A stretch of DNA of 60,867 nucleotides, counting the filler, from Sluysia triapertura (Eukaryota), in NCBI GenBank assembly GCA_046118255.1. It is 5 parts of 5 records of this genome, joined end to end, with 100 filler letters (N's around TTAATTAATTAA, not from the genome) between each part and the next. Parts side by side here need not be neighbours in the genome. Positions count along the whole stretch, not along the records: positions 37,634 to 48,431 come from JBJNIA010193327.1; positions 48,532 to 60,867 come from JBJNIA010118528.1; 3 more parts are not named here. One strand, written 5' to 3'. Numbering within the stretch: the stretch's first letter is position 1; each line of letters opens with the position of its first letter. The position numbers and the translations under genes were made by a program. The notes beneath the pieces were generated by a model. That model saw nothing but the letters and a program-made list of their open reading frames with translations. It was not told the origin of the DNA and did not search any database. Shown in pieces: positions 15,320-54,410 of this stretch.

Positions 15320-18300
15320 ATGAATATTGGTGATGGATATACAAAAACATTTAATATACCTATAAATCATTTGGATTTTGAATATATAAGAAATTGTAGT
15401 AATGTTTCAGAATTAGAAAAAATTTATCTCACTTTAAAGTAATAATAATAATCGCATTAAATCATTAGGATTGGGGAAGAAGGTGTGTTTCCAGATTTAC
15501 AGAATTTTTGTGAAGAAAAATTGAAAGCACTTTGTCCACAAAGGTTTTTTTATGTTTTACTTATATAATTAGTCGAGCATTACGAAAAGCTGAAACGGTT
15601 AAGAAAATTAATGAATTAGATGATGAAACAAAAGCTGAAATAACTAATGATGTTAATGAATTTATTCAAGAATGTCAAAAATCATCTGATGTGCCTAAAG
15701 AAATATTTAATTCTAGTGGGGACAAATCAATTGATATTCCAATTCGTGGAAAATCAATACTAAAAGAAAAAGTAGAATTATTTTATGATTTTATAAAATG
15801 TTTAGAAGAACACTGGTACTTTAAAATCTTGTGTACCAAAAGATTATAACCAATGGAATAAGTAATTTTTTGTAATTTTATACTTGTTTTAGGATTGTAG
15901 CAAATTTGGATAAAGAAATTATTGATGAAGATGAGGAAAAGTCTGCTAAATCAAAAAATTCAACAGATAAACAAACGATACCAATTGTAAAAGAAATTTC
16001 ACATAATGTTGATACTAGAGGAATGTCAGATATAGAAAAAGGAAAAAAAGCAATATTAGAAAAAGAAAAGGGAAATGAAGTATTTTAAGTGTAAACATTA
16101 AAATTTTATTTCTTACAGTCATTCAAATCTGGTGATTATAAAGAAGCATTGATATATTACAATCGTTCATTGTCGATTACACCATCATCTTTGGTTTACA
16201 ATAATCGAGGATTTGCATGTTCGTTTAACATTTAATTATAAACGTGATTACGTTATAAAAAATATAGTATAATTTGACACAAGTATATGTAATATCATAT
16301 ACAAATTCTGAGATTAAAACTAATTTTAAATTAAATTTATATTCAAATTCAAAATTTTGCTACTTATACCGTTGTAACCATCATAAAGCGTCTTTGTTAT
16401 AGTGAATTCAGTTTGATAGGACAAAATACTGGCTATACAACCACAATATAAGATCGAAACACATTTAAGTTATTATAGATTAATAATAACTTAAATGTGT
16501 TTCGATCTTATATTGTGGTTGTATAGTCAGCATTTTGTCTATTAGTTATTTGTAGACATCGTTTTGACTATGTATTTTCTCTACATTATAATTCTAACCA
16601 CGTACTTTATTCAAATATGTCCATGTTAATATTCATATTTTCCGTGTTTTATATACTTTTTGGGTACTACTTAAGTGTGATGAATTCTCGTCTTTGTTTC
16701 TTTATTTTTATTTTTATTCTAAATTTCTAATTATTATGTCTTTAATTCATTCTAACTTGTCATGGATTTTCGGAATTATAAAATAAGGAATGGAAAAATC
16801 TATCCTAAATATTAATTAAGTTTTGTCTGCAATGCAAAAAAATTATTTTTAAATTTTATTTACAGTCAAAAATTAAATGTCTCGAAAGCAAATAAAAAAT
16901 ATTATGTAATTAAAATAAAATCATCAATGTGTCGATGATATATATTAGTTAAAATTGGGAAGAAAACGAAATATTTATTAATAAAGCAAATAACAAAGTG
17001 AAAAACGCGAAACATAATGTGCTTATCGCCATATTTGATTAACTGGAGTCGATCAAGTGTTTTCAACACTACTTCAACCATCACAATTAGTTCTTCAAGG
17101 TTGTCTGGGGAATTTTATCGGAGTATATTACTTTTTATGTAGACTGTCGGCAAATTTGAAGCCTGATAATAGTACTGTATAATCTCAGTTTTTGTTTGTC
17201 TCCATTTTACTAAAATGGAAGAGGCAGTAATGATATATATGATTTATGAAAATTATAAGAAACTGATTAATTAACCAATGAAGTGAGAAGGATTATAATT
17301 TATCAGTAATTATAGTATGCACAATAATCAATAAATTATCAAAATAATAAAAGAACGAAATAGTTTAAAATAGGTCAAAAACTATCATAATTTAAATCAG
17401 ATATTAAATCGTAAATGTAAAATTTTTCTTCTACTAAGTCTTTAAATATTTATGCGTTATTTCTTTGGCTTTACTTTATTAAACTTTCGTCAAATTCAAA
17501 TATGCTTAAATACTGTTTTATACTTTATAAGTTTTGCGCGTTGATAATTTGTCTACAATTGAGAATTTTTTAAAACCAGACTGAAATTGGGAAATTAAAT
17601 TCTGATTTATCGTCGATGTGGAATCAATATTTATATTTATTTACGACCAATCAAATTTTAGCAAAGCAAAATTTAAGAAAATTTTATTACTATTGTAATA
17701 AAAGTCTGAGTTATAAAACTCTATCTTTTTTTAATTAAATTCGTTATACATTTGAGTAATAACTTTTACTTACTTTCAAATTATTTGTAGTATAACTTCT
17801 AATTTAAATCTCTTTAAATTATTCGAACTTCATACTTATTGTAATAATCGGAGGCCTACTTGTTTCTGATGCAAGAATTAGAAGTACCAATAAATTATTA
17901 AATTTTCTAAGTCTCAAGAAAAAACTAGCTAAGATTTATAAAGAATAACGACAAAAATGTAATAAATAAGGAAATGCTTTTGTAAAATTTTTACACTATT
18001 TCGAAATTTATATTCCATGTAATCTATAAAAGATGTGTTTATTTTATTTTATTCATCGGAATAAGCTGAGTCCGATGATTAGACTAAATTACTTTAATAA
18101 TTTATTTGAACCAAATACCATGTTATTCCAATAAATGATTCGATTTACGCATGTGTGACTTGGAAAATGAACCTCTTTATAAAGTGTTTTTTTGGTATTT
18201 TATTCTAGCCAAAAATTCATTTAGTGTTCTCTCCAAGATAGTCACTTCTTAATCAATTTATTTCTATAATTAATTACGTTAGTCAATTTTGATTGATAAT

Positions 18301-21300
18301 AAAACACTTTAATCTCATTACGTATGTTTTTGCTCTTGTTTGGTCAATTTCTGCAACATAATAGTCAATCACGATCTATAATTTCTATAAGATATTTACA
18401 TCCACATCGATCTGTAATATAGCTAATATTACACTATAGTTATTTATATCCTCCTTAATTCAATAGTACTCAATAATTTTATACTGTCAATAGTAAGTAT
18501 ACATTTATAATATTTATAGTATTACAATATTGTTATTATTTTCAATTACCATTCGGGTAAAATTGGTGCACCATTCCGTTTTAGTCTAACATGGCATACT
18601 ATTTTATTGACAGTATTAATTTTTTAATGAATATTGTGAATGCTATTATGAATCATTCATGAATATTGTGAATCATTCTTGTGTTATTTTCTACAATAAG
18701 AAAAATTGAATGATTAAATTGAAGAAAAGGAAAGTATATGTGCATTTATAATTACTAAAACAAATATTATTTTCAGATATGAAATTAAATATGTGGAAAG
18801 AAGCCGTCAAGGATTTCAGTTCTACTTTAAAAATGGAACCCGGTAACATTAAAGGTGTAGTTCGTTATTATTTTAAAGTGTCATCAGAAATTAAAGAAAT
18901 TTGTTTATATTTCAATGTAAAATGATTAAAATATTCCATAAAGAGAAATTTGAGTGAGTTCTTTGTGAGTAATTGTGCCACTTAATTTGTTTTTATTAAT
19001 GAATTTATAACATCTTGAAACTATCTTATAATTGTGAAAAATTTAACAATAATAATAATAATAGTTATAGTTTTAGTTACAATTATAATCAGGGCCAGAT
19101 CTAGAGTTATCGAACGACCCGGGCAAAACAAAATTTGGCGCCATTTCAAACAAGAATATACAAATTTACTGCGAATTAAAAAAATAGTAAAAAAGCCAAA
19201 AATTACACAATAAAGAACTGTGCAAAAATTTATTTATTTAAAAAATATTATAATAGTTATTTACATACAAGCGATACAACATATGAAAACATAGCGAGGG
19301 CTTTTGAAGTTTGAGTGACGAAGGGGCGAGAACTTTGAAAAGTAAGTTATGCTATTCCTGTTGCATACGTGTGACAAACAAGATTTTTTGTAATACTATT
19401 TGTCAAAAATTCAATAGCATAGTTAATTAAATTAATTTTTTTGTTGAAAATCAGTTTGCAGTTTACAATATTAAAATAATTAGCGTTGTGACCTTCATTT
19501 GGTATTATTAAAGAAAAAAATTTATTGCTTGCTAAAAAAGGTTGATGTCTCATAAAAATGATCGATTTTAATTTATAAAATCTAAAACAATAATAAATGT
19601 AAAAAATATTTTCTTTATATCGGTAGTCGCCAAGTTTTCCCGCCCCTTTAACAGACGCTGTTTGCATCACACAATACAAAATAACGCAAATCCAATACAA
19701 AACATTTTAATCGAAGAAATATGACAAAGAAGTCAATTCGAGCCTTCTATTCTAACTACAAATTGAAAAATATTAGTGTTAAAATATCAGTGTTAACGTT
19801 CACCCACCTCGGTCTGAAGTACACTTATTGTTAAAAATCTAATAAAACTTTATTAGTAGTTTGAGATGATTCTTTAATAAATTGTCGAATTTTCTGTTAC
19901 AAATACATTTGAAAGAAGAAAATATTTTAATAGTTATAGTTATAATAATAAATTAATTTCTATAACGAAATTTTAAAAAACTGTTGTTTATTAGTATGAT
20001 GATTATTCTTTAAGACTTGTATGAGTTTTAGGTTATTTATTAACTAACCTAACGTTGAAGTTATTCACAAATNNNNNNNNNNNNNNNNNNNNNNNNNNNN
20101 NNNNNNNNNNNNNNNNNNNNNNNNNNNNNNNNNNNNNNNNNNNNNNNNNNNNNNNNNNNNNNNNNNNNNNNNNNNNNNNNNNNNNNNNNNNNNNNNNNNN
20201 NNNNNNNNNNNNNNNNNNNNNNNNNNNNNNNNNNNNNNNNNNNNNNNNNNNNNNNNNNNNNNNNNNNNNNNNNNNNNNNNNNNNNNNNNNNNNNNNNNNN
20301 NNNNNNNNNNNNNNNNNNNNNNNNNNNNNNNNNNNNNNNNNNNNNNNNNNNNNNNNNCCGAAGAGCAAATTGTTATTACGAAATCCACGAATTAAAATCT
20401 TGTATCGTGGATTGCAAAAAGATTCTTTCTCAGGATCCAGACAATAAAATAACCCAAGTTAGTTAAATCGTTTATTTGTTAATTAATCGCCAGTTTTTAA
20501 ACAAATATTAAAATAACAAAATATAATCATTTAACAATTGACCGATACCAAACATTGTACTACTCTTTGTTTATTCCAAGAAGGTTTTTCTAGCATTTTG
20601 GATCGTTTTGAAAGCGAAACCAAACAATTTTTAAATTGTGAATTAACAAAATGATAGTTGTAGGATGTATCTAATATCACTGCTTGTATAAATATCTTAT
20701 GATTGTGTATATGTATGTATAACCGAACCGCAAACTTAAATAAAAATTAGATATCAAAAACGACAAATGTAATTTCTTTTTTATGTCTTTTGTGTTACTT
20801 TCGCTACTATTCATTTCCTCATCTTCTTCATGCCCTAAATGAGGATGACCCGGATAAACGATTAGAATTTGGTGAGAATTTTATACAGTTTTGTGGAGTA
20901 TCACCAGATTTTCCAGACTGCATCTTATGGAGCGATGAAGCTTGCTTCTAACTGAATGTTAACATACACAGTGTGTTTATTGGGACAGTGAGAATCCCCA
21001 TCCTATTATTGAAACGGAAGTCAATGTTCCTGGAGTCACATTCTGAGCTGTAATCGGCATCACTGGCCTAGTTGGTCCATTATTCTTTGAAGGAACTGTT
21101 AATGCTGAACGTTACCTCGATATGTTGAAGACTAAAGTGTTTCCTAATGTTAATGAGTTCCCCCATTTCTGTCATCTTCATTTTCAACAAGATGTTCGAC
21201 AATGGCTTGATGAAACATTTCCTGGACATTGGATTGGACTCAGAGGACCAATCGAATGGCCTGCCATATGCCAGGAGTTTTTCTATGGGGAGTTCTAAAG

Positions 21301-21781
21301 AACGCAGTTTATGCTAAAAAGCGTAGGACAATTCATCAATTAAAACAAAGTATTCAGAACGAATGGAACCAAATTTCAGAGGAAAGTTGCCAGAAAGTAT
21401 GTCGTAGTGTTGTCAAAAAATGTGCTTATATTGACGTTCAAGGTGGACATTTGTAAATCCTAAATATACCTATTAAATTTGTCGTTTTTGATATCTAATT
21501 TTTATTTAAGTTTGCGGTTCGGTTACTTTTGGGATACCCTATATATTTACTTATATATTTATTCTTATACCTTATATATTTATTACTGTTTCAAAAATAT
21601 ATTCAAAATTAATCACTTATTTTATTAGAATTTGTTGACAAAAGCTGAAGAAGAATTACAAAGACGAAACGAACCCCGTTTAAAAGGTGGAAAACGAATG
21701 GTGATTACTGAAGAAGATTCCGAAGAAGGTGATGAAGAAGAAGAAGAAGAAGAAAATGATACTGATCGTGATAAAGTTAAT
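15320..21781 (+). CDS. SPAG1: Sperm-associated antigen 1 (TPR dynein-assembly co-chaperone), 5' part: exons 15320-15438, 15469-15543, 15573-15771, 15806-15860, 15893-16079, 16119-16218, 18778-18854, 21629-~21781
   Basis: N-terminus TKTFNIPINHLDFEYIRNCSNVSELEKI..LKIGEEG.FPDL..FCE, then PKDYNQW, TPR repeats EKEKGNESFKSGDYKEALIYYNRSL and YNNRGFAYMKLNMWKEA, then KGGKRMVITEEDSE; all characteristic of SPAG1. One TPR exon and the 3' part are not visible (gaps). Confidence 0.9.
16420..16539. repeat. Near-perfect 57-bp-arm inverted repeat with 6-nt loop in a SPAG1 intron
   Basis: Arms 16420-16476 and 16483-16539 are reverse complements apart from 2 substitutions. Confidence 0.95.
16990..17150 (-). 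mobile_element. Tc1/mariner transposase C-terminal remnant
   Basis: Minus frame YIKSNI...PDNLEELI...DRLQLIKYGDKHI resembles the mariner-type C-terminus (LK.KVY...P..LEEL...RL......G.H). Confidence 0.5.
19090..19145 (+). mobile_element. hAT-like/MITE terminal fragment
   Basis: cagggccagatctagag...ccgggcaaaac...ggcgcc resembles CAGGGCCGG-type hAT termini. Confidence 0.4.
20720..21541 (+). mobile_element. Internally deleted Tc1/mariner (Tc3/maT-like) element with TIRs
   Basis: ~50-bp TIRs (taaccgaaccgcaaacttaaataaaaattagatatcaaaaacgacaaat and its reverse complement at 21477-21525). Internal frames HALNEDDPDKRLEF, ILWSDEACF, GPLFFEGTVNAERYLDML, FQQD, FPGHWIG.RGPIEWP and FLWGVLKNAVY carry stops and frameshifts. 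Confidence 0.93.
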
Positions 21782-22339
21782 GTACTTTTTAATTACTATA
21801 TTGTTTATTAATATTATATCATATTATTATGATTTCATTTATTTTAATTAAATTATTTATCACAATTATAATTTATAATTATAATTTTGTTGCAAATTAT
21901 TACATTAATGACAATTAGTCATTATATTTACAACCGAATATTAACGATGTTCTACATAGAATGTCACAGCAAAAATCATTTTATGCTTTTTGTATGGAAC
22001 AATAAATGACGTAAATTAAAAGAGAAGGTCCAATAAATAATGTTAATTAATGAGTTATTTTAGCTTATCATAATAAGTGTTATATATGGTTTCAATAGTG
22101 CTACAGCGAGTATTGTACTACTATTGGATTTCCAATTGGTTGGCTCTAGTTTAAGTAACAATCCACTTTATTGTATGGTTGTGAAATACTGGAAGGTGCA
22201 GCAGATCCACATATGAAACATGCAGTACATTTTCATTCAAATTATTTTAATTGGATCATGTAAAAATCCTACGCCTAGGGTAGAATTTGTGAAGTTTATT
22301 TAACAAAATTGAACCTTCTAATTAAAGTCTAATAGAATA

Positions 22340-22618
22340 ATTTTAAAACCTATTATTCAAGATGAATGGAGGGCCTATAATAAACTTGAAGTTTTGAGAT
22401 ATGAACACCAAACAGTTAATAATTCAGTTAACTTTGTGGAACCAGTTGCAGGTGCTCACATTCAAAACATAGAATCTTATTGGGCTAAAAGCAAAAGAAT
22501 GATGGGTATCAAGAAGGAATTTTTACAGGATTATTTAAATGAAATTATGTGGAGAGATAACGTTAGAGGAGAGAGTTTTGAAAAAACTTTAGAATTAATA
22601 AGAGATGTTTATCAATAA
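22340..22618 (+). mobile_element. Merlin/ISXO2-like (IS1595 family) transposase remnant
   Basis: IIQDEWRAYNKL...HQTVNNSVNFVEPVAGAHIQNIESYW...LQDYLNEIMWR matches the ISXO2/Merlin DDE C-terminal motifs. Confidence 0.88.
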
Positions 22619-23067: not shown

Positions 23068-23194
23068 NNNNNNNNNNNNNNNNNNNNNNNNNNNNNNNNN
23101 NNNNNNNNNNNTTAATTAATTAANNNNNNNNNNNNNNNNNNNNNNNNNNNNNNNNNNNNNNNNNNNNTAAAGTTTTAAAGTTATTCACATTTTT

Positions 23195-35800: not shown

Positions 35801-38800
35801 GTTTAATAATAATAATTATTATTATCATTTTAATTATTAAATTTTAATAATCTCATTGAACATTGTGTAAAATTTGCATAGTTTTGCCGGATTCGAATTT
35901 AGATAACTGATTTAATTAAGAATTACTAAGAAAAAGAACAATATTTGCATTATTCGACAAACATACAATAGATAAGTATGAGTGTGATTATTATGTAAAA
36001 TAATACGATTAAATATTGACAGAAATGTAATCAAGAATATTTAAACAATAAAGAAAACTTTTTATAATAATAATAATAATAATCATAATAATCATAATCA
36101 TAATCATAATATATTAATTTAACACTTTTATATATTTTTTATTGAATAATGTATAAGCATTATATTTGCAATATTCTAATTAATTAACTGCTGCTCTTTG
36201 AAGGATTATTTGTGGGTCTCTCGATAAATGTATCCGAATTCCATATTCATTTTTGTGTCATTATATTTTAAAAAATTATTATCATTCCGTATGTGTTTCA
36301 AAATGTCTTAAATTACTGACAACGACGTTGTACCAAATTTCATTTCCGTCAAAGTTAAGAATGATATTTAATTGCGGCTCGCAAAAAATGGCTCGGACTA
36401 TCAAGTAGCTTGGCCACCCCTGTTACATGACAAAATGCTTAAATTATTTGACAAGAGGATTATATTATATGAAAAAACTTTGTATGTATAGACATTTTAA
36501 CTTCGAGTTGTCATAATTTAATTCTTCAAAAAATTCTATGTTATGCACATTGATTTGACACTTTATGTCTCTCTGAATTAATTCTCTGGGCTTAATTTAC
36601 CCACTAAAGTAAAAAAACGTAACAATAAAAAATGAGATTGTAAAAAAACTATTGTAAGCGCATGATCTGCAATCTTACTCGGTAATGAGTTGATCATTTT
36701 ATGTATCTAAAAAGAATCGGACTGGGAAATTGCAGTTTATTTAAGATATACTTCTAGGATAAGGGTTTCTTTGTCATTTTAAGATTTAGGACGTTAATGT
36801 TAATATTAATGATTGAATGTGTTTGAAATTTCGAACGCACCTATTAAAATGATTATAATGAAGTAATGTGAGAAGTTTTGAAGTTTGTTGTTGAAGAGTT
36901 GAATATTTTGAAAAGGTTGAATGTTTCTGTGTTTAATAATGAGTTTAATTGATTTTTTATTGCTTTTTTGAGGTTATTGAATCGTGAAGATAACAAAAAT
37001 TCAATTTTTACAGAATATGTTGGGATATTGTTGACTATAATAATCTAAAAATTGTTAGGCGGGTCTGATAGCTCAGTGGGTACTTTAATAAGTTTGTTTA
37101 TCCTCTATCTTGGGGGCTTTTAATCTTTAATCTCTTGGTTTTTTGGGAATAATCAATCTATTATACAACAACTGATATTCTCTTTCACATTTTCATTTCC
37201 TTCTTCTTCGTTTCATTTTGCATTCAATGGTTTTTATTTCTTCCTATTCTTCTATTTTAATTATTTTTTCCCTTTATTTATTTTCTTACATTCTCATTTC
37301 TTTATTTCACCCACTTAATTGTATATCTGTAATTTATCATTGGTGTGATTATGATTTAATATCTTTCTTTGTTCTTTCTGACTTATCAGTGGTATGTGTA
37401 GTGGCCAACCCCTTAACTTAAAAAAATAAAATAAAACTCATCACATAAAACAACATGCACAACTATAACACTTTTCCAACTCACACTTCACAAACTACAT
37501 CCAACAATAAATTAATCCATATCTTAACATTCCNNNNNNNNNNNNNNNNNNNNNNNNNNNNNNNNNNNNNNNNNNNNTTAATTAATTAANNNNNNNNNNN
37601 NNNNNNNNNNNNNNNNNNNNNNNNNNNNNNNNNCTAGAATTTCGATTTCTATTTTAGAAAATATTTCCTTTTTTAAAATTTTACGAATTATGATGACAAC
37701 CTAACAGAAAAAGACTTTATTATACTTTCCATGAAAATATTGATAAATTATTTTATTTCTAATTTTTTGTTTTATTAAAAAATATAGTAAAAAATAATTT
37801 TATTTTAAATAATAATAATAATAATTAAATAGTTAAAGTATAATATTAAACTATGATTATACAAAACAATTATGAGATGAATAATTACTAGAGATAATTT
37901 TATAAGAAATCATTTATTATAACTTTATGATTTTGTAATAACATCAATTATTGTTTAACGATGAATATATAATTACAAATATTAATGTAATAGTAGTAGT
38001 AATAATAATAATACATTGTACATAAAAATAACTTAAATAATTCTAAATTAAGCCCTTACTAAAATATTTCGAATGATTTTGATAGAAATAAATAATTGAT
38101 TATATTATTTATTGATTATTTATTGTTTTGACATTTAATAATTAAATAATTTAAAATTGCAATTACAATTATTAAATTAGTTATAATTTGTAATTTATTT
38201 ATAAATTATTTTTTCAAAATAATGTATAAATAAATTAAAAAATAATAAATAATTCAAAATAAATTAAATTAAGTATATTATGGTGTTCGTTTATTTTAAT
38301 TATGATATTAGTAAATATGTCAATAATTAATACAAATAAACAAGTAATATATTTAAGTAAATCTGAAGATGAAAAAATTGAGACTCATTAAGTAGGTTTT
38401 AAGTAATGATCTGTAATCTAAGTATTATAATTAAAATTATAATAACTTAAAAATAAAATTATTATTTTAATATTTTTTAAATAAAATAAGAAAATTAATT
38501 TTTTAACTAAATAAAACAATATTTCACATATTTTTAGCAAAAGATTCAATATAAAAAATCATTTCGTTTCCTTAGGTAGAAGTATTTCGGTTTTTCTTCG
38601 AAATATTTTTTGATAATACGTCCTTCTTGAATGTTCGAACAACAAAAATCATTTGGAATCAAGTCAAGATTGTAGTAAGAAGTGAATCTAACTTTGATTA
38701 TAAGATTACTTTAAATTCATAAAGTATATTGAAACTATGGTTTAGTTTAGAAAATTATTGTTAAATTGAAATGAAAATATCAACTTAAAGTCCTTACTAA

Positions 38801-40172: not shown

Positions 40173-41789
40173 TTAGTTTATTTTAAATAAGTTACCGGTA
40201 CTTTTAGAAGTGTTGTGGTTTTTTGTGGTATTTATAATGTTTAAAATTATTATCTTATTCACTACAAAATTTACAATAAATATTTTATTTGCAATTTTAG
40301 AAACATTTACTGTGACATAAAAATTCAAATCTTGATTCAAGAATTTTAGATTAAAAATATCTAAATTAAACGTATTAAAAGTTTTATTTAACATAAAATT
40401 TTCTAATTTATAATCATGCAATAAATATCTAATATCTTCTTTATTGTCTGTTATCCTTACTTCTCTACCTAAAATAAAATCAATAGTTAAGTTATTTACG
40501 TTTGTAAAGTAACTAATGTTGGCATTATTCGGCTGAGCAGGAGCGTTGACCAATCGCATTAAACCTGTGAGTCTGGAAAGATGGTTCAAGTTATCTGGAT
40601 GTAAATATAGATCCTCAATTTGACCAATAGTGTGATCATGCCGACACTTGCTTGGATATTTTGCACATGTACCATTGAAGTCGCTTCCATAAGGACATAA
40701 TGCTTTTCCAATACGCCGATTAGAAATTGGTATACGTTTGATTGTACTATGATAAAGGTACATTAAACTAAGAGAATTACCTTCTGGTTTCGCATTATCT
40801 TCGCATGAATTGTAGTCATTACTGTCAGAAAGATTCTCATTATCCATTTTACTCTTTGATAATTCTGTGACATTGACAATGTTTTGTATCGATTATAGAC
40901 TTGAATTCCGAAGTATTATCATTTACATCTGACATAGTGTTGACAAGAATTAGATGTTGAATCTATGTTGGGATAAACTATGCTCATCACCACTAATTAT
41001 AATAGATTTGACATTCTTAGACTCATCATCAATATTAAGAACTTTGAACGAATGAGTGGGGATCTTACTCAAATACAAGTCGACTAAATTTGAAGAATCT
41101 GTTAAAATATTCAATTGTAGCTTACGAAAACATCTATCATCATAAAGAAACACATTTGACTGTGCTTAAATCTCATATCTGTATTTGCAAGAGAATAATG
41201 ACTTATCATAAAATGGGACGTTCGCACCATGGGGATGATAATTATTAGTTTCAACTCCAAATCTAAAAGATTTATGTTCATGAAAATCCATCCATTTTAT
41301 TTCTCGACTAAAACCTAATTTATGTTTGTTTTTACATGAGACTACATATCCAACCTCACAAATGGTTTCTATTCTGTATTCATGGGGTTTAAATGCTATT
41401 ATGAAACCATGAATTCTTTCTACGATTTTGTATTTATATTTACTATTGCTGTACGTTTCGATCGCACTGTTCTGTGTCTCAGTAACATATCTGAAGTCTT
41501 TATTTTTACATCGGTACCTTATTCTTTTACATTCTGTTTCTTTTTTTAGCAATTACATTATCTTGTCGTTTAATACAAGTAGAAATATTGTTATGATCAG
41601 TACTGACATGACGATGATTTTTTTAAATATTTGTAAAGGAAATACAAACTTTAAATTCTTTCTATCAACAGCTTTATGATTAATGACACGATCGTATTCG
41701 GAAAATGAATTTACTAGCTTAACTTCGAATGTATTTATCTCATTATCATTTAAAATCACTATATCTTCACATTGAAAATTTTGAGTCAT
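40173..41789 (-). pseudogene. Cassette A: disrupted ~1.6-kb intronless ORF with CCCH zinc finger (40632-40697)
   Basis: Four track ORFs (41789, 41552, 41153, 40847) share one frame, separated by TAA stops or short compensating frameshifts; contains CPYGSDFNGTCAKYPSKCRHDH. Confidence 0.7.
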
Positions 41790-42000
41790 TACTTTAATTT
41801 TAACTTGAAAATTTTTAGTAATAACTTTTTTGATAATTCTTTTTCTTTTTGTTGTTACATAAAAATTTTTGCGTGTTAAAATAATAATCTTTTTAGTGTA
41901 TCATAATTTTTAGTTTGTCTGGATTGGTTGTATCATAAAAACTTGTGTGTGTGTGTGCTAAAATAAAGATATTTTTTTGTGTATCTGTGTTTGGATTGGT

Positions 42001-42052
42001 TGTCCAACCAGAGATATATAAAAATAATGAGAAAAATCATTCTGGTTGGACA
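42001..42052 (-). promoter_or_regulatory. Conserved hairpin/inverted repeat upstream of cassette A ORF
   Basis: tgtccaaccaga-N28-tctggttggaca; homologous to 47032-47081 and 49103-49159. Confidence 0.7.
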
Positions 42053-42249
42053 GCCAGTAATAATATAGGCTATTTTTATACTTAAAAAAGTAGACACTAA
42101 CCACTGTCAATGGTGACAATGGTTGTAACCCAATGATAGTGGTAGCTACCAAAATGATTAATAAAAATTAAAGTTTGTGCTGACAATAATAATAATAATA
42201 ATAATAGTAATAATAATAATAATAATGAAAATGATAATAATAATACAAT

Positions 42250-42860
42250 GTTATTATTATTATTAAAACTGCATAAATTCTTCCTTTGTCTTGAAAAACA
42301 TGATTTTACTTTTGATTCTTTTCTTTCTCGACATATTAAACTTAAAAACAGATGAGCCTTAAAGAATTGTGAGTTTGCCATGTTACAGCTTAATGCTACA
42401 TATTTTGGATAAGGTTTTAAGGTGTTTGAATATAAATTTAACTGCCGTTTTCTGGTTTCAAGTAAAGATAAATTTAGGTTTTAGTATTTTGAAGTAATAT
42501 AAATGTTTTATGTGGATATTAAAATACACCTTGATGTTTTGAAATGAAATAATGTTTTTGGCTGAAGATGAACTTGAGTATTAAAAGGTAATGAATCAAA
42601 TATCTTGAAATAGTGTAAATGTTTAATATGGATTATAAATGTACATTGGTTTTTGCATGAAAGTAATGTTTAGCTATTTGGAAGTGTGATTTAAAATGCA
42701 TTGGAAAGAGTATAGTTTAGTGAATGAAAAGAAGATAAGTTGTAGTCTAGCTTTTAGTATGTTCAAAAGGTGATTGTGCTGTGTTGAAAATATGATTTAT
42801 TTTCTTGATGTTTTTAAGTAATATTATTGAATGATAACAGATCACGAGATGGTTTAATTT
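42250..42860 (-). repeat. Shared AC-rich leader of cassette A (possibly retroelement-derived)
   Basis: 42710-42860 aligns with 47495-47660, and 42270-42620 aligns inverted with ~48550-48885. Ends in an (AAT)n tract on the minus strand. Confidence 0.65.
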
Positions 42861-45800
42861 TTTAGTTGCAATATATATATATTTCATAATTCATGTTAAA
42901 AATTATTAGTCTATGTTGCCATCCCTGTACTAAATTAGTAAAAAAAGTTCTTCTTAGAATATTCTTAAGGTCATTCATTTCAAATCATATAATTGAAGCC
43001 TTTTTTTAACATCGTCCGCTGGACCAAACCTTTAAGAATGCGTATTCTGAATGTTAAATGGAAAAGAGCAAAATGAGTTTTATATTTTTATTAATTAATG
43101 GAAAAACGATTTTTATCTGATTCGGTAATCTTGATTAAAGATTAAATATGAAATCAATTTAAAATTACATAAATTTGTTATAAAAGTGAATAATTATTTT
43201 AAATTAAGTTTTTAAATTATAAATTATTTTAATAAAAACTTAGAAAAGAATGGTTTCATATATTTATTAAGATAGAAATCAAAACTATTTTTAATTTTTT
43301 ACATAATGTATGTTTCTTTAAATCTATATTTGATTGCAAAATGAAAAATTGCTTTCCTAGAGCTTTTAATATTCATTTAATCAAAACAAAATTTAAATGA
43401 GACTTAATAAAATGAATATATTGAAAGACTTTCTTCATTTATTAATTAATTCTAAAAAAACTAACTTAAATATTTTATTTAGAAAGGAATAATATAATTT
43501 TTTAATTGTATTTTTAATGTGTCACTTTAAAATAATCAAATAAATTTATTGATTATTAATGTGTTTGTATTTCATTTAAAATATTTCTATTTTGATTTAA
43601 GCTTGAAAAATTGGGATTATTTTATTATTTTTTATTTAAAAACCAAACAGAAATATAAACTAGAAACATATTAAACATTGTTTTCAAAAATGATTATAAT
43701 TACATTATATCATTTGGAATAATGGAAATGAAACAAGAAAAATATGGACGAAATCTTTTAAGATTAGCAAGGAAAGGCATTATTTTGCACTAATCATATA
43801 TAGCTAAACATTATCTGCATCATTCCTTAATAAAAACGATCTTACATGATCCATCATATCTCTAGAACAGAAGTCTTTCAGTTATTCTTTAAAATATTTC
43901 TTGACAAATCAAAAGAAATTTCAAATTTCATCCGTCTTCTTTTGGTGTTTAAAATACCCAATGATCGGCGAAAGAAATCAAAACTTTACAGTGAATATTT
44001 TAATTCATTCTTCGATCAATATTTTCTGACTCATTTTTCTTAACATTATCAGTAATTGTTGATATTAGTTTTCTGTTTTTTACATAATAGAAGTTTCTTT
44101 TATCCATCTTCGTTCTAACAAATAAGCTTCTTAATTTTTATTTGCATACAATGCACATTCTTTTTTTACACAAATTCATTAATACTTATAGCATACAAAA
44201 TCGTTATCACTGATCTAGACTGAATTTCATTCATATTATTACGAAATTTTCATACGTAAATTAACATATTATAATCTTTTAAAAGTATCTTAACAGTCTT
44301 AAAATAAAATAAAAATCATACGTCTCAAGAGATTTAAAAGAAACAGCTTTAAAATTCTGAAATCAAGCAAGAATTAACTCAAAATATCCATTATTTTTTG
44401 AAAAACATTAACTAATTTATAAGTTAAATTGGCCATATATTCACGATTATATAAAAAAAATTTAACAATAAATAAAAACACTATAGAAAAAGTGTTGTGG
44501 AATGAAAATGAAAATTTTATTTTTACTAATAAATAATTTATTTAGTGTAATAATGTAATAAAAAATATATAAAAGGCATTATTTCCTTCATAGAAAAATA
44601 GGCGTTTTCACAATAATGCTTCAATTTTAGTTGATAACTTCATCGACAATAAACACAATAAATAATTTCTCGGATAATTGGACATTGAATATTTATTTTC
44701 GTTATTTACATTAACAGTATTTTTTATTCATTATTTAATGATTGTACCACAAATAAAATCAAAATCACCATAGTCACATATTTTAAGCATTTTCTTCTCA
44801 TTTAACACAGTCACATAAAATTTCTATATTTATGTAATAAATTCTTTATTTTAAAACTAACTGCATCAAACTTTGTAAAATTAATTTAGCAAAAAAAAAC
44901 ATAAAATTTGTTTAATAATTAATTAATTATAAATTAATATCTGTAATTTTTTAATTTTATGTGTAGATCAGTTTTTAATTATACAATAAATACTATGTTA
45001 TTGTTGATAGATATCATTAAAATGTAGTTAAATATATTATCAAAATGTAAATAGAAAGTGTAAAATAGAAATTCGAGAAATAAACACAGATAAATTTATG
45101 TTTATTCTTAACAAAGACAACAAATATTAAAATTATATAATATCTTTTATAATCACATACAAAAATCCATAAATAAATGGATAATTTAAATAAATAAATA
45201 AACAAATAAATATATTAGTATGTGAATCTTTTATTATTTAGTGTTATTTGATTGTGTAATTCTCATTATCAATTTCAGTTTTTGAATGAATTCAATTATT
45301 TATTGCAGTTATTATTTGTTGATGACTATAAGAACAATGACATGTCGTTTTCCATCTAAANNNNNNNNNNNNNNNNNNNNNNNNNNNNNNNNNNNNNNNN
45401 NNNNNNNNNNNNNNNNNNNNNNNNNNNNNNNNNNNNNNNNNNNNNNNNNNNNNNNNNNNNNNNNNNNNNNNNNNNNNNNNNNNNNNNNNNNNNNNNNNNN
45501 NNNNNNNNNTAGACTACAAAAAGGAAATTATTTTTTCAAAGCTGTTTGAAACTATTTACTGATTTAGTAGAAAAAAAATAATATACAAATAACAAAGTTA
45601 TTTTTTTGTTATATATTTATGTTGTGAGTCTAAAATATTTTAAAATGTTTTGTTTGTAATATCCTTAATACTCTTGGAAAGTATAAATATTAATACTTTT
45701 AAATTAAATTTAATTAATTAAATAAAATAATTAATGAAACTAATTTAAGTTGATAAGAGATTGAGTAATAAGTTATTGATAAAAATGTGATACGTTGATG

Positions 45801-45978
45801 CTTTTGTGAAGATTTAATGATTTGTATGTTTTTAAGGTTAAGATTGAAATTAAAATTTAATTTATATTTTCTATTACCTTTATAAATTATTCTTTCTTTA
45901 CTAAAAAACAAAAATTACACAAAATTTTATTTAAATTTAAATTCTTGACTCCCACGTATGACTTTTCTTGTATTTGTT

Positions 45979-46960
45979 TCACCTACTAAAAAAATAAGAA
46001 TTGATAATACTAAGAATGTGAATATAAAAATTGTTTACCTTATGGTTATTGATCATTGAAGTCTTGTAAGTGGAATTGGTCGAGGTAATTCCAATACTCT
46101 CGAGTAATTCTGCAATTCTGTGTATATGATGGTTATAATTTGTTTCATCTTCTTTATTAAACTTTAATTCGTAAATGGAATGTGCGTAGCGGCAACATAT
46201 TCTGGGCATTAGACATATCTCATTGTTGTCGGAGGAGAATGGACAAAGAGGAGTCACATTAACATTTTTATAATCGTTGAATTCGTAATGTTTATCTTTA
46301 CCATCGTTAAGTTTGAAATCATTAAGTAAGTAAAGATTATTGTTATCGTCATTAAATTAGTAAACATTAATTTTGTAATCGTTAAGTTCGTAAATATTAT
46401 TTTATTATCGTCGATATACTCGTAAACATTAATTTTATAATCAGCAAGTTCGTGAATATTATTATTATCGTCGTTAAATCCGTTAACCTTAATTTTATAA
46501 TCATTAAATTTGAAAGCATTATTTTTATTGTTGTTAAATTCATAAACTTCAATTTTATAATCATTAATTTCAGAGTTATCTTTATGATTGTGAATTTGGT
46601 CTTTATCATTGTTAACTTCATGATCATCACCTTTATTCTTCATAGCTTGAATAGCATCATCTTTATCATTGTTAACTTCACCATCATCATCTTTGTCATT
46701 ATTAGCTTGATAGTCTTCATCTTTAACATTGTTAACTTCGTTATCATCATCTTCAGCATTGTTAGTTTGAATATCATCGTCTTTATCATTGTTAGTTTCG
46801 TTATCGTAATCTTGATCATTGTTAGCTTGATAATCTTTATCTTTAACATGATTAACTTCTTTATTATCATCTTCATCGTTGTTAACTTTGTGATAATCGT
46901 GTTTATAATCGTTAGATTTAACAGAAAACATGATTTCCACCTCAAAATTCTTTTTTAATA
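45979..46960 (-). pseudogene. Cassette B: Asn/Asp-rich repeat protein with C-terminal CCCH finger (46180-46245), one frameshift and one in-frame stop
   Basis: ~11 copies of a 30-bp unit (NNDKDDDxEV-like), then ~4 copies of a 60-bp unit (DDNNNIHELADYKINVYEY-like). Restoring the frame near 46400 links these repeats to VTPLCPFSSDNNEICLMPRICCRYAHSIYEL. Confidence 0.75.
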
Positions 46961-47031
46961 ATTTAGTGGTAAAAAGTCTAATTCTGTCACCTTTTTTTGA
47001 AAATAAAAACTTGTGATTGAGAAAATTTTTG

Positions 47032-47081
47032 AGCCAGAGATTATTGATTTGCAAGAAAACACAGTGATACTTGCTCTGGCT
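47032..47081 (-). promoter_or_regulatory. Conserved hairpin upstream of cassette B ORF
   Basis: agccagag-N34-ctctggct in the same flanking context as the A and C hairpins. Confidence 0.6.
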
Positions 47082-47299
47082 GGATGGCCAATGAAAATAC
47101 ATGATATCATCTCCAATAATTAATGAAGTTACAGTCAACTTTGATGACAACCATCATCAACGGTGACGTTAAATTATAAAAGTAAGTCAAAATTTCACTG
47201 CTGATGATGGAAGTTACTCAGTTGATTATCCGTTCAGGTTTAATAATACATAATAATAAAAATAAAAATGGTAACAGTAATAATAACAACAAAATGTTA

Positions 47300-48116
47300 T
47301 TATTATTATTATTACTAAACACACAGTCTTTATATTTTGAAAACTTACAAGATCTTTCTTTTGAATCTTAAAAAGATTCTCAACATATTTGAATCTGCTA
47401 AAAAATTAATAACTTTGATGATGTGTGAAGGTCAGAGGTTAAAACTGAAGTAATATTTAGATGTTAGTAAATAGTGGGTTAAATTATGTTATACGGGTGT
47501 AGTTTAGTGTGTAAAAAGTAGATAAGTTACAGTCTCACTTTTGATATGTTCGTAAGGTGCCTCTAGATGTTTAGAATGTGGTTTATTGTCTTAATGTTTT
47601 TAAACAGTGATGTCTTTATGTGCTGTTGAAAATTAAATGATGCAGATCATGGGTTTAGAATGTTTTGTTTGCTTTGAAGATGTCTATTAGTCAGTTTCAA
47701 GTGTGATTGTAATTGAATTGTTGATAAATGAAGAATAAAACATTTTAGATGAATTTTTAATGTAATTTGATGGTTTTCAATGTAATTGTGGTTTAGATGT
47801 TATGAGATTCTGGGTTTAATTGATTTTTACGGATAAAGATGTTTTTAGTGGATGTAAAAGGGATAAATATGAGAGTGTTAAAATGTTTAAGAGTATAGTT
47901 TTATTTACAATGTGTTCATTTAGTTTATTATTGTTTCATGTTGATTTTAGAATGTATAAGGTAGGTTTTGAAAGTGAGTGTTATGTTGGCAAAACTTATG
48001 TAAAAGGAGTGTTTTTAATGAGTGCTTTGGGGAATATAGAATGTTAATTTTTATAAAATTTATTAGGAAAATAGGTTGGCCACTATAGATGTACAGGACA
48101 CTTCTGATACCAACTG
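47300..48116 (-). mobile_element. Cassette B leader: retroelement-like remnant starting at a PBS-like motif
   Basis: Minus strand ...tatCA gt TGGTATCAGAAGTG (48116-48099), followed by AC-rich degenerate sequence ending in (TAA)n; homologous to the cassette A leader. Confidence 0.45.
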
Positions 48117-49102
48117 ATATAAATTGTTGATGGAAATTGAGACCGATTATCTTTTAGTTGTCCGCGGTTATTAAAAGGGTCGAAATGAGAGACTCCGGTA
48201 TGTTATGTGCTATGCAGAACAATATAGTTTGGAGTTTAACGTGATTGGTTGTTTATGAAGATGAATCAAGATTTTGTGAGTGGCTTCGAAAAATACGAAA
48301 TATATGCAAAATACTTTAGTTTAATGTTTGTAGAAATCGACTCAATATCAAGAAAATAATCATGAATTGACTTTAATTTTTAAATTTTTATTCTTTTAAT
48401 TTTGTTATTTACGTTTGTTCGGTTTGTAAAGNNNNNNNNNNNNNNNNNNNNNNNNNNNNNNNNNNNNNNNNNNNNTTAATTAATTAANNNNNNNNNNNNN
48501 NNNNNNNNNNNNNNNNNNNNNNNNNNNNNNNTATTTAAGAACTTATTCTAACATTCTCTATTTCATTTTCGACTCAAATCATTTATTATATCTTCAAAGG
48601 TGAATTATGCCTATCAATTTTTTCGAAACAAATATTACTCGGAAATCTATTCCTAAATACAGCTTTAATTCATTTTAACATCTTAGAAATCAATAAGAAA
48701 TTTAAGAAAAAACCAGTACCGTTTTAAAGAGTTCAATTTTATACAACGAAATAACAACGATAACTCGAGCATATTACAGCCTGTTATCAATTTTTGTTTT
48801 ATTTTATATCTTTCATATATTTAGAAGTCACGATTAACAGAAAGAAAGATTGTGTTACATTCTTTTAAAGAGATTTATGCAAAATTTATTATTTTATTTT
48901 TCTTGTTAATAATAATATTGTTATTGTTATTATGATTATCACGTATTAAAATAATTTTATTAAAATTTCGTAATCAACAAAATTGGTTGCTACCATCACC
49001 AGATGACACTACTCATTACAATTTTCATTAATGTGCCAACAGTGATGATAGCCAATCATCAGTGATCATCATTTTTGCAGCTAAATTTGTGAATGCTGCT
49101 CA

Positions 49103-49159
49103 TCATCCAATCAGGACCGATTTTACTCATTGATCTTTTTTAAAGCCCTGATTGGATGA
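49103..49159 (+). promoter_or_regulatory. Conserved hairpin upstream of cassette C ORF
   Basis: tcatccaatcagg-N31-cctgattggatga, a 13-bp perfect stem containing inverted CCAAT boxes. Confidence 0.7.
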
Positions 49160-49282
49160 CCAACCAAAACTAAAAATTAAATCATTAACAAAAATAGTTA
49201 TATTACGAAATTATTACTATACTAGCAATAATCATTGTGATAGTTTCATTTAATCGATAAAAAATTCTTAAAAACTAATTTT

Positions 49283-50581
49283 ATGATTGTCGATCCTGAT
49301 GGTATAATCAAGCAGACAATAAAATTCTTATTTGACCAATTTCAAGTTGTTATTCATATCACGATTCTCTCTCGTAAAGGTCCTTCGAAAGACAATATAA
49401 CTTTAAAGTTATTAGTAACGTATTATATGAATGAAAATAATGATTTTATGATCCACTCGTCATTCATAAATTATCATTCATAAAATAAAACAATTGAGAA
49501 TTATCTTTCATCATGGTATTGTTAATTCGTTATACTCATTATCAACCACTATACCAAAATCATGCGAAATACCATGTCAGATATCAAAACTTTTAAAAAT
49601 ATCAAGTAAAATTAGTTCAACACCAGATTGCAAATGTATCTAACAATGCATCGTGTACAGCTAAAATGTATCTTTATATTATCTACAGTTTTAAATGAGC
49701 TATGCTTAAAACCAACATTGTTTGTCGTAAACGAAGATCTTGAATTTAATAAATTAAAGTTTATCTTGACCCCAATCAGATTTATGATTCATAAGAGTTC
49801 AATTAGGTCTGGAACAATGATGGAACAAAACAAAGCCACTGATATAATCAATGTTAGAAGTAGTACTCAGAACATTTCGGATATCTTAGTCAACCTCATT
49901 TCAATTTTTTTAGTGGATTTAGATCGTAACGATCTTACGGTCAACGTGATTAGTTTCCGATCAGAAGTTAAAAATCAAGTACATTACTCTGTTCAAGTTA
50001 AACTTGTTCACACACTTATATGTCAAGTCATAATAAGATTGAAAGATACTACACCTATTCAAAATAGAAAATGGCGAGAAAATAATCGTAGTAAATTTTT
50101 ATCTTTTTTGTTTAATTACTAATTCGTATATCTTGTTTTTTTTGATCATGTATCCAACACAAAAGCTCATGAGATGCAGAGAGATGTGGCAACAAAATCG
50201 ACGGATCGGAATCTAATAATTGATAAAAACTAAACAATTAATTGTTCAACATTTAGTTCGAATTGTAAATTAAGAAAATTTTCTTTTTATGTGCCTTGTA
50301 ATTTCTTTCTCAACCATATAAATAAAAGTAACTTTAAGTTTAAAGTAAATTTGTTTGAACTAGAAACAATTCGTATGAATAAGAAGATAATATACAAACA
50401 ATCTATGAACGATAATTTTATTGATCTTAATTTCACCATAATACCATACTACTATACCTTATCGAGCTTTAAACGTATACCGAATAAGTTTACAAACGTC
50501 AACGTAATTCAACTATTTCGTTGTAAAAATATACTCAAAACCTTTTCCGGCCATCAAATCAATAATCTTAAGTTTCAATAA
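49283..50581 (+). pseudogene. Cassette C: ~1.3-kb single-frame ORF interrupted only by nonsense codons
   Basis: Track ORFs at 49283, 49628 and 50291 are in one frame, broken by 5 internal TAA and 1 TAG with no net frameshift. Confidence 0.6.
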
Positions 50582-50677
50582 AATACAAATCTATACCCTA
50601 CCAAAATTATTATTACTTCTAATATTCCATTATTATTTTATTATTACATTATCATTTTCGTTATTGACCATTATTGA

Positions 50678-50735
<58 letters not shown>

Positions 50736-51924
50736 CATCATCATCATCTTTATCATTTTTAATTACCACTGTCATTCTTGACAGTTTTTCATTAATTTAA
50801 CTTTATAGTGCTGTCAATGAATGACAGTTTTGTAATTGCCGTTAAACAAGTCTCTGTTATTGGTCAACTAATTAGACAAGCACCATTTTATTTTAATTCA
50901 TAATCATTTTAGATATCACAATTGTTTTGGAAGTCACAATTATTTTTGTAATGAACATTTAATATTATACAAACTTTATGTTATTAAATATGTTTTTATT
51001 GATAGTATAAATTTTATGTTGAATATATATTCAAGTTTTATTTTCAATCATTTCATTTATAAAGAAATGAGAAAAATTCAATAAACTAAAAGTTCTAATT
51101 GAAATAAATAAAGTTAATTTAATTAATAATCTGAATAATTTAATTAATTCGATAACAAATAAATCTGAAACATTTTATAAGCATCTAAAGAAATTACCAG
51201 AATGAAATGTGTTTGTGATTGTAGTGTGTAGATATGGAGTTCACTACAGTGAAGAACGAATGTATGCTAATTTTATTTTTGTAAATTACTATTAAATATT
51301 AAAATTAAATTTTTTATTATTATATTTATAATTTTATTTCTGAAAGAGGAATGCTATATCATGCATCACTTAGCTTATTATCAGTGAAAATTTTGATAAC
51401 ATTCATTAAATAAATCCATACTATGCAGGTATTCAATGAACAATACTTAAGAGAAAGTAACGTGACAATTAATATTGGATGTGTTACAATACTTTTGGTT
51501 AAATCAATAAAATATATAGATAAATATAAATATAGATAAAGTTTCAGTGCTTTAACGATTTCGTCTTAATATAAATAAGTATAACTTTAAGAATGATTTT
51601 ATACCTTTAACAAAGGAAACCTTACAAAAATAAACTTACAAATTGTATATAATCTTGTTGAAGTATGATCATAATAATTGACGAGAAACCCAATAAAAAG
51701 TAATCTGCAACAAGGTTTAAATTTCTTTTAACTGATCGGCTTAATCCAATTTTCAAACAGACCACAAAATTGTTTGATACTTTCCTACTGTTTAGATCAG
51801 TCGATGTCACGTAAATCCAAATACTTTATTTTATTTCGAAAAATTAATTATTTTGTGTACAAAAATTTATTATTTTATTACATTTTGTTTCAAAATTTGT
51901 TACGCTTTTATTACTGTAATTTTG

Positions 51925-53432: not shown

Positions 53433-54410
53433 ATGGCTAAGATCAGTTACAACAAAACTAGATTGTTTTTGAATCAAAAAGGACAACAAATAAAATTAAC
53501 AAGAGTAGCCACAAATATAACTCCACCTGATCAACATTTAGCATTAATTGAATTCAAGAAATTCCAAACATTAATTACAAAAAAGAATCGTAATAATTTT
53601 ACAAAAGATTATTTGTTAACATGTATGTTTAATGAAACAAATGTTGCAATAAAAGCATCAAAAATAAAAAAAAATCAATTAGAATGCAGTATTATTTCGA
53701 CTAGTAAATATGAAAATAACTCCAATTTAAATCCAAAAACAACTCAAATGAAAGTTTATAATGAACATAGATTTTTAGTATTTACAGCTACTGAAGTATC
53801 TAAAATCATTATGAATAATTTTCAATTTAATGGTTTTAAATATCATTTAATAGATTGTCGTTATTCTTACGAATATGATGGTGGACACATTGTTGGATCA
53901 ATTAATATTTGTAATTTTTGGCATTTATTATTATTTATTTTTTATTCTCAAATTTTTTACAGAAATGTAAATAAATTATCAAACAAAGATTTAAAAGTAA
54001 TAAATACAATCAAAAATATATATCGAAATTTTATTTCCTCAGATTCATATACAAAGGAGTCAAGAGAAAAGATGCTCAAAGTAGCACGGAAAAAGTGGAA
54101 AAATGAAAAACTTATATTATATTGTGAATATTCTACATTTCGAGCTCCATATTTGGCCAGATTATTGCGAATGTTTGACAGGGTCATTAATGATTCGTAT
54201 CCGAATTTAATCGTACCGTATGTTTATATATTAAAGAAAGGATATCGTAATTTTTATAATAAATATCCTAATCTTTGTTATCCTTCGCATTATATTGCAA
54301 TGAAAAATGGTTCAAGTGAAAGTAAATTTGATTTCGAATATGTTAATGAAATAAGAGAAAAGGAGTATTCTAATTTTATTAAAACAATATTTAAAGTGGA
54401 TGTACATTAA
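53433..54410 (+). CDS. CDC25: Cdc25-family (rhodanese-fold) M-phase inducer phosphatase, intronless, 325 aa
   Basis: IDCRYSYEYDGGHIVGSINI, catalytic CX5R loop YCEYSTFRAP, DRVIN.SYPNL..PYVYILKKGY.NFY and CYPSHYIAM are diagnostic of Cdc25. Confidence 0.93.
   Translation: MAKISYNKTRLFLNQKGQQIKLTRVATNITPPDQHLALIEFKKFQTLITKKNRNNFTKDYLLTCMFNETNVAIKASKIKKNQLECSIISTSKYENNSNLNPKTTQMKVYNEHRFLVFTATEVSKIIMNNFQFNGFKYHLIDCRYSYEYDGGHIVGSINICNFWHLLLFIFYSQIFYRNVNKLSNKDLKVINTIKNIYRNFISSDSYTKESREKMLKVARKKWKNEKLILYCEYSTFRAPYLARLLRMFDRVINDSYPNLIVPYVYILKKGYRNFYNKYPNLCYPSHYIAMKNGSSESKFDFEYVNEIREKEYSNFIKTIFKVDVH

Follow-up and report, generated by a model that had tools for sequence, protein, structure and literature searches.

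What kind of element carries hairpins whose two arms change together from copy to copy, beside a set of orphan reading frames, is the question raised by a 60,867-nt stretch of DNA from Sluysia triapertura (assembly GCA_046118255.1), referred to here as the window. The window, on which all results rest, is eukaryotic animal-like DNA of 24% G+C (76% AT), and four N gaps within it (10765-10864, 23068-23167, 37534-37633 and 48432-48531) contain TTAATTAATTAA spacer and are artificial joins, across which the order is not guaranteed. Three diverged copies (A, B and C) and a damaged fourth copy (D) of a non-coding module were identified. The order within each copy is hairpin 1, hairpin 2, an (AAT)n repeat and a G+T-rich tract, read on the plus strand in A and B and on the minus strand in C and D, so that copy C is inverted relative to A and B. 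The AAT microsatellite and the second covarying hairpin are present in every copy and the G+T-rich tract in A to C. The reading favoured here, to which we assign a probability of about 0.35, is that the module is the control region, acting as origin and promoter, of decayed rolling-circle-type mobile cassettes, and that its hairpins fold on a single strand. The components are as follows.

41995..42058, plus strand: hairpin 1 of A, with perfect 12-bp arms (42001-42012/42041-42052) and a 28-nt loop; the stem can reach 18 bp if G·T pairs on the plus strand are included.
42096..42147, plus strand: hairpin 2 of A, with a 9-bp core (42101-42109/42134-42142).
42185..42264, plus strand: (AAT)n microsatellite of A, then a short (TTA)n run.
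42265..42870, plus strand: G+T-rich non-coding tract of A, with a GC skew of +0.41 and an internal degenerate duplication.
47032..47092, plus strand: hairpin 1 of B, with an 8-bp perfect core (47032-47081) and a 34-nt loop; its right arm and flank are homologous to those of A and its outer left arm is lost.
47146..47215, plus strand: hairpin 2 of B, with a perfect 9-bp core (47151-47210) and a folding z of -5.8.
47245..48060, plus strand: AAT/TTA repeats and G+T-rich tract of B (GC skew +0.54), the most skewed stretch in the window.
48532..48960, minus strand: AAT repeats of C, in degenerate form, and its tract, which is mildly G+T-rich (skew +0.21) and cut by the assembly gap.
48988..49056, minus strand: hairpin 2 of C.
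49103..49165, minus strand: hairpin 1 of C, with 13-bp perfect arms (49103-49159) and a 31-nt loop.
50629..50875, minus strand: damaged copy D, with (ATT)35 at 50629-50735 and a strong hairpin 2 at 50768-50828.

The initial annotation had reported three inverted repeats with loops of 28-34 nt, and these were recovered at the places it gave, with loops of 28 nt in A, 34 nt in B and 31 nt in C; the arms of C proved to be one pair longer than described (13 bp, 49103-49159). The loop motif GATTTT.CTCATT, said to be common to A and C, is indeed found in both and has exactly two occurrences in the window. Perfect arms of at least 12 bp, with at least six G/C and a loop of at most 60 nt, were observed three times, in A, in C and in an unrelated 44-bp foldback, against none in any of 100 local dinucleotide shuffles of the window. 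With the limits lowered to 8 bp and five G/C, five sets of arms were observed, against a shuffle mean of 0.36 and a maximum of 3. The B hairpin alone was not significant at window level, and is counted because of its homologous position, the A-B alignment over hairpin 1 giving a z of 4.6 (0/200 shuffles).

Between A and C, each arm of hairpin 1 is identical at 8 of 12 positions (67%) and the loop at 21 of 28 (75%). All eight arm differences fall into four compensating pairs (P 6.7e-4 for the pattern), in agreement with the four paired substitutions first counted, and the single paired substitution claimed between A and the perfect core of B was also found. As the arms diverge as fast as the loop and every change is paired, it is only the pairing that is conserved and not the arm sequence. 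When hairpin 1 of A, B and C was treated as an 18-pair helix, 87% of cells pair, and both partners are changed in six pairs, where shuffles give 3.0 +/- 1.2 (13/500). This figure is not a probability, and the copies were selected as palindromes; with the helix slid out of register, 20-48% of cells are paired. In hairpin 2, three adjacent pairs switch jointly, setting A/D apart from B/C. In register, 34 of the 36 cells are paired, a count flattered by the left arm having been picked as the best-pairing 9-mer. RNAalifold placed 19 pairs in hairpin 2 of A, B and C, five of them changed on both sides, and the terminal motif TG(A/G)..TGG.A is present at the four copies and once elsewhere in the window. 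For hairpin 1, the initial annotation offered a selected structure or, possibly, conversion between the arms. Pairing has been kept beyond chance, as either would have it, and four copies do not separate the two.

The window contains no further module core. The hairpin-1 covariance model returned no extra copy there (best outsider, the 44-bp foldback, E 0.04; D, E 7.8), and the hairpin-2 model, trained on A, B and C, placed D as the top outsider with a weak score (E 0.016 on the opposite strand and 0.14 on the expected strand). Copy D folds strongly at hairpin 2 (z -5.8 and -7.2) and retains only a right-arm remnant of hairpin 1 at about 50860-50871, with no hairpin-1 fold (z +1.7). No open reading frame (ORF) follows D, and its apparent tract is probably the 3' end of the C frame, which has one stop there versus 8 and 15 in the other frames. 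A G+T-rich piece at 36810-37030 (plus strand; skew +0.62) aligns with the tract of A (z 4.0, 0/200 shuffles) and not with that of B; it has no hairpin core upstream and is possibly a fifth remnant. A direct duplicate of the left flank of A lies 72 nt upstream, at 41905-41930, repeats GGATTGGTTG and has a 12-mer in common with the flank of C.

Homology of the cores was assessed by shuffling, with 0/300 for A-C, 1/300 for both A-B and A-D, and 3/300 for B-D; B-C (p 0.057) and C-D (p 0.16) were not significant. Over hairpin 1, A and C are the closest (z 10.7), with z values of 4.9 for B-D, 4.6 for A-B and 1.1 for B-C, and over hairpin 2 the alignments of note are B-C (z 5.2) and A-B (z 5.0). Among the tracts only A and B align (z 15.5), with 74% identity over 155 aligned nt, which is better conserved than the zinc-finger DNA of the same two copies (50%); the C tract has no significant alignment to either. 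The ORF-side flanks of the copies show no significant alignment (z at most 1.3). The relationships differ by segment, and the copies appear from these alignments to be mosaic.

The G+T-rich strand is antisense to the ORFs. RNA folding of the core on this strand and on the other gave -61.7 versus -50.9 for A, -51.5 versus -48.5 for B and -64.6 versus -50.1 for C. The preference is clearest in hairpin 1 of A (-33.1 kcal/mol, z -9.2 on the plus strand; -24.0, z -5.5 on the minus strand) and of C (-30.6, z -5.6 on the minus strand; -19.2, z -3.6 on the plus strand). Mismatches enclosed in the stems, read on the G+T-rich strand, comprise seven G·T and one A·C (two-sided p 0.07, one-sided 0.035). 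Because the stems of A, B and C fold better antisense to the ORF, with G·T accounting there for seven of the eight mismatches they enclose, a stem in the 5' untranslated region (UTR), one of the roles first offered for the hairpin, is disfavoured. The A and B tracts differ at 41 positions, 21 of them A/G changes. The ratio of C to G at third codon positions is 155:108 in the cassette frames versus 83:116 in seven host exons (p 2.5e-4; p 0.049 at fourfold sites alone). As this codon skew is the reverse of that in host exons, the strand bias spans the cassette.

A palindromic CCAAT-like protein-binding site had also been suggested. The 836 nt of module contain CCAAT or ATTGG 10 times, where 1.5 occurrences are expected (p 5e-6, for regions chosen after the fact), and intact CCAAT pentamers are clustered upstream of the start, as in NF-Y/CCAAT promoters; a promoter role of the module region is likely. 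The suggestion thus holds for the enrichment around the module and fails for the arms. Both arms of A carry CCAAC with pairing retained, the arms of B are degenerate too, and the core of hairpin 2 is without CCAAT; NF-Y strictly needs CCAAT. Given the CCAAC arms of A and the CCAAT-free hairpin 2 core, conservation of a site does not explain the covariation. The arms also overlap a palindromic site. Exact TTGG-N4-CCAA occurs three times in the window against 0.26 expected, two of the three inside modules; it is exact in the left arms of A and C and has one mismatch in the right arms of A, B and D, and each hairpin 1 arm of A overlaps a palindromic TTGG-N4-CCA(A/G). Arm sites with one mismatch or fewer represent 5 of the 18 such sites in the window.

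Each hairpin had been described as lying upstream of a cassette ORF. The position was confirmed, with 212 nt in A, 101 nt in B and 124 nt in C between the stem and the first ATG of the adjoining frame, whereas intact ORFs were not found, the frames being interrupted. The stem of B lies inside an open frame with upstream ATGs (47102 in frame). The adjoining frames are as follows.

40173..41789, minus strand: interrupted frame of A, 538 codons with five in-frame TAA; the last 224 codons (40847-40173) are intact and contain a C-x9-C-x6-C-x3-H motif.
45979..46931, minus strand: frame of B, with Asn/Asp-rich 30/60/120-nt tandem repeats, an interruption by frameshift and stop codon near 46.36-46.40 kb, and then a CCCH-like region homologous to A.
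49283..50581, plus strand: interrupted frame of C, 432 codons with five TAA and one TAG.

In a strict test, an ATG-led stop-poor frame was found within 250 nt at two of four copies, A and B not being independent, against a background of 3.6% of positions. Four early stops make C fall short, and D is without a frame. In-frame GT-AG candidates at 11 stops were absent in six cases, poor in four and plausible in one, so tiny introns were rejected as the cause of the stops. As most stops are not explained in this way, the cassette ORFs are considered decayed genes. An alternative genetic code (10 of the 11 stops are TAA) is unnecessary, since the host genes in the window end in TAA, TAG and TGA and TAA would be the likeliest nonsense codon at this base composition; zero TGA versus three TGG argues against a mitochondrial code.

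The CCCH-like fingers of A and B are homologous (0/1000 shuffles), their Cys and His residues being kept at about 30% identity. No relation was detectable between the C and A frames, the best comparison of C-termini (25/1000 shuffles) being second-best of 26 pairings tested and a lead only. The finger recalls CCCH zinc-finger RNA-binding proteins of the tristetraprolin type through the C-x9-C-x6-C-x3-H arrangement in A and B, but with non-canonical spacing, no Pfam match for the cassette frames and a best CCCH-type Protein Data Bank (PDB) match at E 2.7, it is likewise only a lead. The A ORF, read with X at stops, gave 0 matches at E 0.001 with phmmer against 1.84 billion proteins. A word-indexed protein search with the intact ORF of A and the middle ORF of C was blank, a search insensitive for this host given that a host Cdc25-like protein was blank too, and exact look-up of six proteins found none. 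The best matches in PHROGs (E 0.034) and the PDB (E 0.17) provide no database relative. Atlas gave CCCH-type clusters at 0.81-0.84 with low recognition, the top two rows being unnamed viral clusters, and a 128-aa piece returned nothing. A single-sequence AlphaFold model of the A ORF had a predicted local distance difference test (pLDDT) value of 30, too low to use. No related loci were found in viral contigs (IMG/VR) or metagenomes (JGI contigs). The arm pattern matched 19 times in IMG/VR, with all 10 pairs in 6 of the 19; these matches are attributed to chance, none having the loop motif or translated similarity. The arm pattern with the loop motif gave 0 matches in metagenomes. Two loose matches to a hammerhead core lack the required stems and were discarded, and no tRNA was found.

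Among the roles named by the initial annotation, we favour that of a putative replication origin. The proposal starts from the observed anatomy, copy homology, paired changes, antisense-strand folding, skew and ORF decay, and each functional step is put forward conditionally. Folding of the hairpins would take place on the G+T-rich strand, at the stage of rolling-circle-type copying when this strand is single-stranded. A displaced single strand accumulates deamination-type changes, and the G+T-rich strand may be that strand. An initiator provided in trans would bind hairpin 1, with its palindromic TTGG-N4-CCAA sites, as has been proposed for the 5' subterminal inverted repeat (subTIR) and its inverted repeat (IR) partner in Helentron/DINE-1 elements. 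Pairing could be kept by selection, by template switching from arm to arm on the single strand, or by both, and the CCAAT-rich stretch would have driven the cargo ORF on the opposite strand. Swapping of modules between cassettes would have produced the mosaic relationships; A and B may derive from duplication of one cassette, all copies having then decayed in place.

The closest published anatomy is that of Helentron, DINE-1 and Helitron2 elements. Their left end consists of a subTIR, an IR, a core and a microsatellite, and their right end of a 3' subTIR and a palindrome (PMC4067079, PMC2374699, PMC7492417, PMC5148889). The order in the DINE-1 left module is arm, inverted partner, core, microsatellite and variable tract (PMC2374699), oyster HINEs have the same order (PMC7492417), the subTIRs of mite HINEs are themselves palindromic (PMC4067079), and the ORFs of Helitron2-type elements may run in either direction (PMC5148889). 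The module shares with this group a short arm with a near inverted partner, then a conserved core with a microsatellite and a variable tract behind it, as well as palindromic arms like those of mite HINEs and compensatory stem changes between families. The 12-13-bp arms of A and C correspond to a 5' subTIR of 11-15 bp with a near complementary IR. A microsatellite follows the core as (AAT)n in A, B and D and in degenerate form in C, a weak likeness given that AAT runs are common in the window. The left arm of A, B and C has T runs in front of it, an uninformative feature for TT insertion at 76% AT. By analogy, the module would work like a Helentron/DINE-1 left end, but with no 3' hairpin or Rep/helicase found it is not counted as a member of the group. 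A description of this combination was not found among the main texts of a partial literature collection; similar termini might be listed in supplements.

Several observations weigh against an origin of rolling-circle type. The module loops of 28-34 nt exceed the 1-22 nt reported between subTIR and IR (PMC4067079, PMC7492417), and the module differs further in having a second long hairpin and an orphan ORF whose start lies 100-210 nt outside the arm. Were the left arm the end of the element, an ORF at this distance would be unexpected; the ORF must therefore be part of the unit, a departure from the HINE pattern. No convincing 3' subTIR was found: there is none near the end of the A tract, a 10/13 match to the arm of C at 48240-48252 behind the B tract is poorer to the arm of B, and C is cut by the gap. 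Near the tract ends (four end regions) there is no 3' palindrome, only A/T stems of 5-7 bp. Among the 137 frames of the window no Rep/helicase partner with matching termini was detected, and the 66 stop-free frames of at least 48 aa at 36.0-53.4 kb contain no Rep, helicase, transposase, reverse transcriptase (RT), integrase or recombinase domain. The copies are clustered within 9 kb, all diverged and with none elsewhere in the window, unlike an interspersed family; there are only four, compared after being picked as palindromes, and D folds equally on both strands. The borderline G·T excess is also expected from strand-biased mutation of a functionless palindrome, since on a strand mutating C to T and A to G perfect palindromes gain G·T pairs without function.

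The nearest rival, somewhat unlikely in our judgement, is a host gene family in which the module is the CCAAT (NF-Y-type) promoter of fast-evolving tandem duplicates turned pseudogenes, with template switching maintaining palindromes that have no function. A single template-switching event can create and fix stems (bioRxiv 10.1101/2021.04.15.439925), and promoters of duplicated genes of this kind would show several CCAAT boxes, lying in both orientations and no more than about 250 nt from the start codon, as here (10 against the 1.5 expected in 836 nt). The fixed position before the ATG is consistent with this, as is the tandem clustering beside host genes, with C and D on one gap-free contig; the Cys and His residues that A and B have both kept, at about 30% identity, would together with the weak CCCH leads suit a gene for a CCCH RNA-binding protein. 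It accounts poorly for arms that covary where CCAAT is lost, being CCAAC on both sides in A, for a second hairpin whose core is CCAAT-free, for a codon skew opposite to that of host genes and for A and C frames that are not detectably related. In addition, G·T pairs persist in the stems, and conversion alone would erase them. A structured RNA transcribed from the G+T-rich strand, divergent from or antisense to the ORF and perhaps a lineage-specific microRNA-like pair, is less probable. Heavy transcription of a strand would fit its G+T skew, and the two hairpins, each spanning 55-85 nt and separated by 40-70 nt, have G·U-type pairs on one of the strands. Against it, loops in the conserved cores are 24-47 nt rather than the short apical loop of a microRNA, both arms vary with no invariant seed-length word in the hairpin alignments, no Rfam family reaches its gathering score (best mir-582, 26.9 of 84 bits), and hairpin 1 is lost in D.

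Integrated segments of a multipartite single-stranded DNA (ssDNA) virus or satellite, each with a common region (origin and promoter) and one complementary-strand ORF, are quite unlikely. The comparison is with nanoviruses and bipartite begomoviruses, whose units with different ORFs share a stem-loop and promoter module and whose common regions are updated by recombination (PMC3187698). A shared module with different ORFs in 2-3 kb units, mosaic exchange of modules, structure and skew on the non-coding strand, and long frames in which no more than one intron is plausible would all agree with such an origin. The window, however, has no Rep or capsid similarity, the loops lack a nonanucleotide-type motif on either strand, IMG/VR and JGI contigs hold no relative, and the copies are chromosomal, decayed, in an animal-like host and built on two long-loop hairpins. 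Slightly less probable again is that the copies are fossils of an undescribed animal multi-component ssDNA replicon, with 2-3 kb units, a shared and recombining twin-hairpin origin/promoter, a different complementary-strand orphan gene in each unit and an initiator unrelated to the Rep and Helitron proteins known so far. Least credible is a 5' remnant of a retroelement with or without long terminal repeats (LTRs), comprising an LTR or 5'UTR with gag/ORF1. A C-rich, G-poor sense strand with a zinc finger recalls retroelement ORF1s, but the region has no RT, integrase or recombinase, self-BLAST gave no second LTR copy, and no TGG resembling a primer-binding site directly follows hairpin 1 on the ORF strand. 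CCCH fingers were not found in the available part of a paper on DIRS/Ngaro elements (PMC9210276).

Ordinary host genes in the window, read with the standard code, encode a carnitine acyltransferase, DAP3, an RRM exon, a rhodanese/Cdc25-like ORF and a galactosyltransferase, with introns of 31-43 nt (n=7, placed by eye), and copies C and D lie with their adjoining host genes on one gap-free contig. The rhodanese/Cdc25-like ORF (53433-54410, plus strand) is intronless, has 325 codons and was without a match in the word-indexed protein search. Transposon remnants are also present. An ISXO2-like (Merlin-type) transposase remnant lies at 22322-22615 (plus strand; E 1.9e-10), and 54-bp inverted repeats (98% identical) at 20720-21525 surround a stop-poor frame, by eye resembling a decayed Tc1/mariner-type element and blank in Pfam. 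Three dispersed inverted-repeat pairs of 74-83% identity (32023-32212/33581-33775, 29171-29290/60182-60288 and 10427-10562/31077-31213) are probably small transposon remnants. The perfect 44-bp foldback with a 6-nt loop at 16433-16526 resembles a miniature inverted-repeat transposable element or may be an assembly fold-back, and is unrelated to the module; its Rfam match to MIR1120 is sub-threshold and mirrors the palindrome. Positions 37380-37533 (minus strand), which adjoin an N gap, and 48074-48120 (plus strand) have GGTTGGCCACTA and a second short block in common, the alignment being borderline (4/200 shuffles). Similar AGG..TGGC(C/A)A ends are found at 36421 and 42926 (both minus strand), and we take these to resemble hAT termini.

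With regard to the identity of the module, the observation of the initial annotation is confirmed and extended, and its interpretation is partly supported. If the module is a host promoter, the locus would be a modest curiosity. The arms, which diverge at the rate of the loop and yet remain fully paired, would with more copies constitute a small natural test of selection against template switching. If the module is instead the control region of rolling-circle-type cassettes, the finding would extend a Helitron2-like anatomy to cassettes in which the hairpin at the terminus also serves to promote transcription of a cargo gene, and would reveal a route for the spread and death of orphan genes in a little-studied animal lineage.

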